NCBI GenBank assembly: GCA_000934665.2
Contig: JYFJ02003562.1
Location: forward strand, 1-40,169
Direction of reading: 5' to 3'
Source of the DNA: Catajapyx aquilonaris
Taxonomy: Eukaryota
DNA length: 40,169 bases
Shown: piece after piece, positions 1 through 3,500 of the stretch
Position numbering within the stretch: the stretch's first letter is position 1
Layout: each line of letters starts with the position of its first letter
Notes under the pieces: generated by a model
What the model was told of the DNA's origin: nothing
The model's input: the letters and a program-made list of their open reading frames with translations, nothing else
Database searches by the model: none
Position numbers and translations under genes: made by a program

Positions 1-90
1 GTCTTTCATTTACTGTTCCTTAATGGATGTTTTGATAAAATTCGCAAAACCTATTTATGTCGTCCTAAACTGGGCTCCGCGCCCACTGTG
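1..90 (-). mobile_element. Probable end of a Transib-like DNA transposon (RSS-like TIR), truncated by the window start
   Basis: The minus strand reads CACAGTG (84-90) + 23 nt + ACATAAATA (52-60). It is flanked by CGGCG (91-95), a CGNCG-type 5-bp target site. The partner TIR is not visible. Confidence 0.45.
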
Positions 91-395
91 CGGCGGTGCA
101 AAGAGACCGTTGCACCCGTGACTCTGCACAACTTGGCCCTGCCAGTAGGTATCCGGTGCCCTTAATGTTAAACTCTGTGTGATCACTTTATACTTGTTAG
201 GAAAGGTATGAAATATTTACTTGCAACTCCTCTGAATTATTTTTGATACACTCTTGCTAGGAAATATTCTAGTGCTAAACAGCAGGAATTTTTTCTGGAT
301 GTTACTAAGTTTGTCTAGCAATGAAGCTGCAATAATATTAATTTTATTGTTAATCTTTATTGAGCATTGACAAGTTGATCTCATTGGTCTATTAG

Positions 396-544
396 GTGCA
401 ATGGAGAATTGGGGTCTGGTTACATACAGGGAAACTTGCTTGCTGGTTGACCCAAAGAATACTTCTGCATCAAGGAAGCAGTGGATAGCCCTTGTTGTAG
501 GACATGAGTTGGCTCACCAATGGTTTGGAAACTTGGTCACTATG
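396..544 (+). CDS. Psa: Psa exon (GAMEN and HEXXH motifs)
   Basis: attag|GT GCA ATG GAG AAT TGG ... ACT ATG|gtaagg; encodes (G)[49 protein letters not shown]. Confidence 0.95.
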
Positions 545-3500
545 GTAAGGATTTTGAATTTTCATTTAATTGGACCTAGTATTGTGCCTTCTTACAGCTA
601 ATGAGTTTTCTTTGCTTCATGCTGAGCAGGAGTGGTGGACCCATCTGTGGCTTAACGAGGGTTATGCCTCCTTCGTGGAGTTCCTTTGCGTGGAACATCT
701 GTTTCCAGAATATCACATTTGGACTCAGTTTGTAACAGATGAGTATAGCAGAGCTCTGGAGTTGGACTCGTTAAGAAACAGCCATCCTATTGAGGTGAGT
801 ATGGGGTTAACTATAGTACAGCCAGTGTGTAGCTGAACTATACGTGTGATTTTCTTCTCGACTGTAGAGGGGAAGGGTGTGGGGCAGATCATGCAACAGG
901 TTATTCAGCTAGTGTAAACTAACCTACAGTCCAGTATGTACTCATCTTGAGTACTTTTCATTTTTTTTCTTCATCCCTCTCCTTTTCCTATGGTTTCTAG
1001 GCACCACAGTAAAGAATAGGAAAATGTACCATCTAACACTCAGAAATCTGAAGTATGAAAGTAGGAAGTATCTGAGCATGAACTGACAAGGGACATATCA
1101 CGGGTGATAATAACAAATCTGGATTAAACTGAATATCCTAATGTAGGACAATAAGGTAAGTGTCCCAGTGGTCGACACGTTAAGGAAAAAAATTCACGTC
1201 TGACGCTCTTTTCATGGGAATTAATTTAAGAAATCCCTGAAAAAAATACTGTTCGAATCATCGAGACTTGCTCTTTCATCCGGTGCATGTTCATGCCATA
1301 TTAATCAGGTTAATTTTGCCTTAATTTTTAAATATGTAAGTGTGCAAATGCTTCAGTTATCGACACCCAAAATGATGACAGTTCCAGTAATAGACACCAC
1401 TCGTGTCCCAGTATAGTCTGTGTAGCGTATTTACTGCTGTTGTGTCAATATCATAAGGGAATGGTAAGTTTTACATCATGTTGGGTTAGCAATCTTAGCA
1501 TAACTTAATAGAGTAATTAGATTTTATTCTGAATAATCATTCATTACAATAATGATCACACGTACATAAGTGATGAAATTTTAATGCTTGTGAAAAGTGA
1601 GTTTGCAGTCTGATTAATTTTCTGTTTATTTTTACCATGACAGGTTCCTGTAGGCCATCCTTCAGAGATTGATGAGATCTTTGACAACATATCGTACAGC
1701 AAGGGCGCGTCTGTGATTCGGATGTTGCACAAGTACATTGGGGATGATGACTTCCGTAAAGGAATGAACATATACCTGACTCGCCACCAGTACAAAAATA
1801 CCTTCACGGAAGACCTCTGGGCTGCCTTGGAAGAGGCCAGCAGGAAACCTGTGGGTGCTGTAATGTCCTCCTGGACAAAGCAAAAGGGATATCCTGTTAT
1901 CCGGGTGAAAGCCAAGCAGGATGAGGATCGGAGGGTTCTGACTCTGGTTCAGGAGCAGTTCTTTGCAGATGGAGCCACTAAAAGTGGTAAGAGTGTGAAA
2001 TTGAAGAATTTTTTTTTGTTGGTTAACTGTCCTTGTTTAGGAGGTTATGCAATGTTTGTGCAGGTAAAGGTTGCCAGCACTGCATTTTTCTCAACATAAA
2101 ATGCAATTCTAGTAGTTAATAGTAATGTACTGTTGTAGCCAACTTGATGGAGATGTACTGGAAGGCTTCAATTAGTATAGTTCATAAAAACCAAGTGATG
2201 TGTTCTCTAAGTGATGTGACACCATGATCATTTCTTCACGTTATGTCATTTACACGGCCTATTTCTTAAAGAACCAAGGTGCAGTGGGTCATCACTGTAC
2301 GGTTTACCCTACACTTTTCAAATCCTGAATTTGTGCAACATACTATCAACTTTTTTTCCTCACTATGGTAATTTTTCTCGGCTGCAGGCTGCCCAGTTTT
2401 GCCCAGATTATGCTTCACTTAGGTTGTAGTATTAATTTTGCTGTATGCCTTACTGCAGGACCTGAAAATATTGCCTGTTTTTTCATTTGACAAGTTCTGT
2501 ATTATCAGACAAAAATTTATGAGAAATCATATATATATCTCACTATTCCCAATATGGGTTGCCTGTGTGGGGCCTGAGTCATTTTAATCGCATCAGAAAA
2601 GTTCTGGCTTAGAGTGAAAATATTACATGTAATAATGCTGTACCTTTTTCTGAATTACAGCGGGAGACTCCAGTCTCTGGATGGTCCCCTTGACATTCAG
2701 TACAGCAGCTGACCCAAGCAAGATCACCTGCCAAATGGTCTTGGATGGGAGGTCAGCAGAAGTGGTGCTGCATGGGGTCAGTCAGGATGAGTGGGTCAAG
2801 ATTAATCCTGGCACTGTGGGCTTCTACCGGACCCAGTATCCTCCTTACATGCTAGAGCAGTTTCTGCCCTCTGTCAGGGACAGGAGTTTGCCCCCTCTGG
2901 ACAGACTTGGACTTCTTGATGATCTATTCGCCATGGTTAGTGTGTGGCAATGCTTTTTTATTATGTGAGGAAACAGGATGTCATGCTGGGAGAGTTTTTG
3001 ATGGTGTTAATGCTGAAACAGATACATATTATAAGGGGATGCAAAAATGAGGCAATGGGAGTTAAGTCAATTTGTATTTGAAGAAATGAGTGTTTGATGA
3101 AATTGTGTAGGATCAGTGAGATTTTGGGGGCTTCACCAAAGATTTGTGGCAACCATACATACAGTCCAGTGTGTTGAACTGGCAAAATCTGGGCCATCAT
3201 GTGATATCCAGTGTAAGTTGTGTAAGCCTCTTCAGGCATAAAATGTTACACAATTAAGTTTGACACCACGTTTTATGTGTTATTGGACACAAAAAATATT
3301 TTTTGGGGTAGTTTTGGCTTGAAAGAACGTTTATTGTTCTGATCAACAGCATGGAACCATAGGGTAAAATCATTTACGAATAAGGTTAGAACACTGGCCA
3401 CATTGGACACCTGGCATGGTATCTTTATAAGTACTTTCAGGTGTACAGGTTTGGTCCTTTTCTGTAATGCCTGGGTTCTGTGTGTAAGGGATGGTTTGCT

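Follow-up and report, generated by a model that had tools for sequence, protein, structure and literature searches.

The transposon end at the start of the Psa contig

The window analysed here, that is the whole stretch of 40,169 nucleotides (contig C1855:1–40169), starts at base 1 of its contig inside an intron of Psa, and the contig edge cuts the element that lies there. The gene is assigned as Psa from its best PDB matches, which are to puromycin-sensitive aminopeptidase (E=2e-45), and from Pfam Peptidase_M1, and this intron is the insertion site of a Transib transposon. The features at this end of the window are the following.

1..52, minus strand: subterminal part of end A of an element that continues past the contig start (near-identity among A ends)
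52..60, minus strand: nonamer-like box ACATAAATA (6/9), with ACATAAATG at the other end (words common among the ends of the family; similar box in other Transib families)
53..90, minus strand: 38-bp terminal inverted repeat (TIR), 5′ end (end A) of a Transib element (38-bp match to the other end of the family; divergence from base 39)
61..83, minus strand: 23-nt spacer within the TIR, of equal length at both ends (sequence of both ends)
84..90, minus strand: RSS-like heptamer CACAGTG, the element terminus (sequence; homology among copies ends here)
91..95, plus strand: CGGCG, right-hand member of the 5-bp target-site duplication (CGGCG also adjoins end B on contig C3963; a single CGGCG in the other arm of the host repeat)
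96..161, no strand assigned: outer right arm of the older inverted-repeat element hosting the Transib copy, with TTAA next at 162–165 (flank alignment to the opposite arm)
396..544, plus strand: GAMEN-motif exon of Psa, the first that the window contains, lying downstream of the insertion (Pfam Peptidase_M1; in phase with the exon on C3963)

The layout described in the first-pass annotation, with a perfect heptamer CACAGTG on the minus strand at 90–84, a spacer of 23 nt at 83–61, a nonamer-like box at 60–52 and CGGCG on the plus strand at 91–95 directly outside the heptamer, was exact in every part on re-reading. The box ACATAAATA agrees with the nonamer ACAAAAACC at six of nine positions and has AA at positions 5–6. 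By itself such a 6/9 match is weak: composition alone gives it a frequency of 1.3%, among the 80,320 9-mers of the window 1,356 reach it, and for CACAGTGG the window has two occurrences where 1.26 would be expected. The feature at end A is placed beyond chance by the family to which it belongs, through its many copies, the exact matches of its TIR, the stop of homology at the terminus and the recurrence of the box.

No partner TIR was found within the window. The first-pass annotation had proposed to look upstream for CGGCG with a second end, and an end B flanked by CGGCG does start a separate contig, C3963; the join between the two contigs is drawn from three concordant lines, no contig bridging C3963 and C1855 through the element having been found among those examined. 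This end is likely to be the partner of the window's copy because it has the same CGGCG, because upstream Psa exons in phase with those of the window lie on the same contig, and because a paralogous empty site can be recognized. The exons on C3963 are on the same strand as the gene in the window; the last of them has ADFSS-G before its GT donor, and its in-phase continuation at window position 396, behind an AG acceptor, restores the GAMEN motif. One contig of run X5 shows this exon (396..544) spliced at its 3′ junction. Both flanks of the Transib copy align to the reverse complement of the host-repeat arm ~0.9 kb upstream on C3963, and in this other arm of the inverted repeat CGGCG is present once, which gives the paralogous empty site. 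In each of the runs X1, X3 and X4, which are possibly from the source sample, three contigs match from base 91 and have host-repeat-like sequence before it; these are best read as paralogous empty host copies, and no empty allele at the insertion site was shown among the contigs examined. The window's copy is antisense to Psa. Its interior is not assembled, and it probably carries no genes. Sitting inside an older inverted-repeat element, the antisense copy would probably be spliced out with the intron and have no effect.

The host element itself (window 96–165 and about 91–1053 on C3963) is an older inverted repeat bounded by TTAA, and a second TTAA-bounded inverted-repeat element of ~440 bp (C3963 1053–1495) abuts it with one TTAA in common. 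Given the TTAA and the purine-rich ends, these may be Kolobok-type MITEs. Two further short repeats, seen as high contig depth, lie in the next Psa intron at window 1081–1200.

Copies, ends and target sites of the family

The first-pass annotation had named a single-copy sequence, together with a missing partner end or CGGCG upstream, as an outcome that would speak against its reading. A search of the 286-Mb genome with window positions 1–110 gave 28 matching places, all 28 candidates having been scored, so this sequence is not single-copy, and a 19-base TIR pattern had 21 exact matches genome-wide against none for the reversed control pattern. The homology between copies ends at the heptamer, and their flanks differ. 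There are two types of end, A (that of the window) and B, which are alike over 38 bp and then divergent. Two copies are assembled in full, one of 1,350 bp with CGGCC on both sides (C60:4260–5609) and one whose 1,849 bp comprise a nested insert with inverted repeats and which has CGACG on both sides (C3804:17815–19663). Each has the CACAGTG terminus at both ends and both (2/2) are flanked by a 5-bp target-site duplication; neither has a transposase ORF between its TIRs, the longest stop-to-stop frames being 100 amino acids in C60 and 130 in C3804.

Among 26 distinct ends obtained by pattern pick-up (16 A and 10 B), CGNCG adjoins 21 and the remaining five are one base off, in a count into which the two full copies enter twice, L017 and L018 come with a shared flank, L019 is collapsed with L017, and more strongly decayed or indel-bearing ends (L014, L016, L058, L062) are left out. 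The nonamer-like position is kept among the copies, the exact box words (ACATAAATA or ACATAAATG) being present in 14/16 A ends and 9/10 B ends. The first 90 bases of the window are matched at 90/90 in six of the 16 other A ends compared and at 84–89/90 in the rest, and the contig depth at the element end is ~9x that of the flank in runs possibly from the source sample. From the near-identity of the A ends and this depth we infer that the family is young and has ~10–20 copies, these counts being lower bounds.

Several other repeats touch on these copies. The older A ends L017, L018 and L019 have a nearly identical GC-rich flank, which suggests one insertion into another repeat that was later amplified. 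The insert nested in the C3804 copy is an element of ~440 bp with long inverted arms (L030 about 759–1199); 78 bp of this element are found again on contig C1435, a short way upstream of the transposase fragment described below. A degenerate, palindromic, non-coding stretch at L029 about 1080–1410 (element bases 620–950) is 68–70% alike to a separate repeat, of which the four fetched copies (L069 4632–5113, L070 4689–5161, L071 and L072) are 85–93% alike mutually. A frame in this interior, L029 1284–1463, seemed at first to resemble a hAT-like C-terminal motif and was rejected, as stops fall in frame at related loci and the stretch is part of the degenerate palindrome common to the other repeat.

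Transposase remnant and related Transib elements

In several longer copies the last ~33 codons of a transposase are kept near end B, and because this C-terminal remnant lies there, end B is the 3′ end of the element and the end in the window its 5′ end. A longer piece is found on C1435, where DNA that is the same as the family 3′ end (91% over 166 bp plus 97% over 64 bp) is preceded by ~200 C-terminal transposase codons, split by a frameshift. The two parts of this fragment match HzTransib (6pqn) with E=1.9e-34 and 6.5e-5, the only significant match in the structural database, and no match to RAG1 was obtained at E≤1 or 5 for the two parts. The fragment covers the region of the catalytic Glu, and the enzyme of the family is known here from its C-terminal part alone, neither of the regions with the two catalytic Asp residues having been seen. 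A search of the genome with the Pfam RAG1 model (PF12940) gave 0 matches with one candidate scored, and the control of that search also gave no match. Derivation of the family from an element encoding an HzTransib-like transposase is shown at the level of sequence homology. Since the remnant matches HzTransib and has no RAG1 match, the family is assigned to Transib and not to RAGL; the label ‘Transib/RAG-like’ used earlier can be kept in its first half, and of a RAG1L/RAG2L-type element the remnant gives no sign. The proposal of a Transib end with an RSS23-like layout is borne out by the many copies with the same terminal base, the 5-bp CGNCG duplications and the HzTransib-matching remnant.

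The nearest intact transposase, a 600-aa frame in C2893 that is 65% identical over 116 aa, belongs to a sister Transib family comprising C2893 (L116 261–2983) and C5357 (L125 1409–5567), with related ends at C298 and C2817. It matches HzTransib at 6.8e-126 against 0.0026 at best for RAG1. The 3′ TIR of C2893 is 76% alike to that of the window's family over 34 bp and has CGGCG outside, and as the likeness is no higher than this, its transposase is only a candidate for the mobilizing enzyme. It is hardly credible that a different superfamily gave rise to this non-autonomous element, its CAC termini resembling an RSS by chance and its Transib fragment being acquired. Most copies indeed retain little of the Transib coding remnant and C60 none of it, and the C1435 fragment has neither TIR within the 10 kb read, but the 5-bp CGNCG duplications, the likeness of the TIR to that of an intact-ORF Transib and the continuity of the remnant's stop codon and 3′ flank with the family interior toward end B all speak for Transib.

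The genome contains further Transib elements. C3133 (L117 3320–6553) is an apparently complete Transib of 3,234 bp with a 730-aa open frame and a GRPK motif, paired TIRs, a CAACG duplication and nonamer-like boxes of 7/9 at spacer 22 at both ends. Two more are paired, C3118 (L120 2382–6539; 4,158 bp, CGCCG) and C3278 (L121 3176–6393; 3,218 bp, CAAAG), and their coding frames are broken by short intron-like stretches.

Genome searches with the C1435 fragment gave 62 matches (71/71 candidates scored), among which no near-identical transposase copy besides the fragment itself was present, while the 3′ remnant was found at eight places, with continuation into coding sequence seen only at C1435. 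The N-terminus of the sister, used in a search for the N-terminal half of the family's enzyme, gave 46 matches; the best unassigned of these, C2439 (54%), shows no connection to the family at the DNA level and was rejected as that half. No intact transposase of the window's exact family was found in the searches with the C-terminal fragment and the sister N-terminus. These results bear on a reading in which the family is the same Transib with the same symmetric ends, but with a youngest subfamily that is autonomous, ~3 kb long and stripped of its coding interior by the assembly. Many young copies do run into a contig edge 90–97 bases inside the element, 4/10 B ends, the partner on C3963 among them, carry a variant at TIR base 20 that is absent from both full non-coding copies, and Transib elements with intact ORFs exist in this genome (the 730-aa and 600-aa frames of C3133 and C2893). 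Both fully assembled copies are non-coding, however, and with one broken fragment as the only near-identical transposase and the only coding continuation among the eight remnant places, we regard an autonomous subfamily as improbable.

End symmetry, the nonamer-like box and known systems

The first-pass annotation had raised the case of an asymmetric 12/23-type pair of ends. Both ends of the family score 6/9 at a spacer of 23 and at most 2/9 at spacers of 11–13, and the nonamer-like box falls within the 38 bp common to ends A and B. The end pair of the window's family is symmetric, both ends being 23-type, and the 12/23 case is therefore refuted for it: the other end repeats the same 38 bp, has its box at 23 bp as well and lacks one of the 12 type. 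In three other fully paired Transib elements (C3133, C3118 and C3278, from 29 loci examined) no 12/23 asymmetry was seen; C3118 has an A-run at spacer 12–13 at both ends. A 12/23-type pair, or the end of a RAG1L–RAG2L (RAGL) transposon, in an arthropod-like genome could appeal to the perfect heptamer, the 23-bp spacer, the 6/9 box and the 5-bp duplication, and to the asymmetry that exists in some Transib and RAGL-A elements according to the available parts of PMC1131882 and PMC10462144. It is nonetheless extremely improbable, given the 38 bp of likeness between the ends, the scores of at most 2/9 in the 11–13 slots, the lack of a RAG1 match for the remnant at E≤1 and the far stronger match of the sister transposase to HzTransib than to RAG1, and for the family the sequence of end B has already refuted it.

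Likeness to an RSS is the published norm for Transib ends, and the element is ordinary in this respect. In the accessible text of Kapitonov & Jurka (2005; PMC1131882) the 38-bp Transib terminus is composed of heptamer, 23-bp spacer and nonamer, RSS23-like sequences stand at both termini in most Transib families, and pairs of the RSS12/RSS23-like kind were already listed for fly and mosquito families in 2005, so that even a 12/23 pair would not be new for arthropods. As in the RSS23-ended non-autonomous families of that paper, as far as its accessible text describes them, the present family has a 38-bp TIR of heptamer, 22–23-bp spacer and A-rich nonamer-like box, a GC-rich 5-bp duplication, a strong target preference and non-coding copies of 1–2 kb. 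It differs from them in its sequence and in its target, CGNCG as against cCASTGg/cCAWTGc of TransibN1/N2_AG, and its symmetric ends set it apart from the 12/23-asymmetric Transib5, Transib2_AG and TransibN1–3_AG; TIR base 34, given there as 85% conserved, is T in the window's family, the box lying one base further in. In the part of PMC4735498 available, CGNCG is the target site of Transib in general. HzTransib of Helicoverpa zea (PDB 6pqn and five further entries) is the best match of the remnant, including the catalytic-Glu region, and shares the 5-bp duplications; the available text of PMC4840297 describes its nick-hairpin cleavage and 5-bp duplications, and TIRs that are heptamer-like with little or no likeness to a nonamer, unlike the 6/9 box found here. 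Of the present family's enzyme, the searches yielded no more than a broken C-terminal piece. According to the consulted part of PMC10462144, both Transib and RAGL-A are known to include asymmetric TIRs and GRPR/K domains, and the criteria for RAGL are given in that of PMC7204232. On these partial sources, the family shares with RAGL-A elements and the vertebrate 12/23 RSS the CACAGTG at the cut site, the 5-bp duplication and a nonamer-like A/T box, and differs from them in having no spacer asymmetry, no RAG2L in a long-frame check of the two full copies, and a transposase of Transib and not RAG1L type. What the case contributes is a further Transib family, young and sharply inclined to CGNCG targets, and another instance of RSS23-like ends as the normal state in Transib.

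Within the family, symmetric TIRs, 5-bp CGNCG duplications and descent from a Transib transposase gene are shown. We consider it very probable that window 1–90 marks one end of a likely non-autonomous, many-copy Transib whose two 38-bp termini are equivalent and which likely arrived recently in the Psa intron through a transposase made elsewhere. On the known mechanism of Transib, a transposase supplied in trans from elsewhere in the genome would bind two like ends as a dimer and, by analogy with HzTransib, would cut at the edge of the heptamer by nick-and-hairpin chemistry, and the excised element would be inserted with a 5-bp stagger at a GC-rich CGNCG. The A-rich box 22–23 bp in may be a secondary contact for an N-terminal DNA-binding domain, and the 12/23 rule would not be in play.

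The nonamer-like box is real and common to nine Transib families of this genome. With one end taken from each of the nine, the mean best score for a box at spacer 22/23 was 5.9 against 3.0 ± 0.4 for shuffled sequence (0/20,000), and 6.0 against 3.2 ± 0.5 for the seven families left when the window's family and its sister are removed; the families share ancestry, and the score could be raised by the choice of ends, since 8 of 14 unpaired end candidates were kept and six dropped by eye, and one of three candidates was taken for C2893. The box may be read by the transposase, in favour of which are its position, kept across families, and the presence of GRP in most N-terminal regions. It may also not be read by the enzyme, in view of the HzTransib TIRs with little likeness to a nonamer and of a sister box of 4–5/9. 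A scan of 14 loci for GRP, two of them without a match and one further row being a chance match, placed GRP before the basic helix in 10 of 12 N-terminal regions as first counted, or strictly in nine, as C2439 has GRS. The exceptions are C2893 and C5357, read as one lineage without Gly-Arg-Pro, and this sister lineage has the most decayed box (4–5/9), with boxes of 5–7/9 in the two GRPK families. C3118 (GRPQ), with boxes of 5 and 3 of 9, and C5404 (GRPS), with 5/9, do no better than the lineage without GRP. Co-variation of box and GRP rests on one lineage, and for this reason and because of the low scores of C3118 and C5404 it is only a lead. Taken together, it is unlikely that Transib activity persists in the youngest subfamily and that the box also tracks the GRP motif of the transposase across the Transib families of the genome; if true, this would open a test of whether a GRPR/K domain already read the nonamer in Transib before the advent of RAG. 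The present case would matter more widely only with proof of an active copy or of a real link between box and GRP, as this would bear on whether nonamer recognition predates RAG. For biochemistry, the C3133 Transib is a good candidate.
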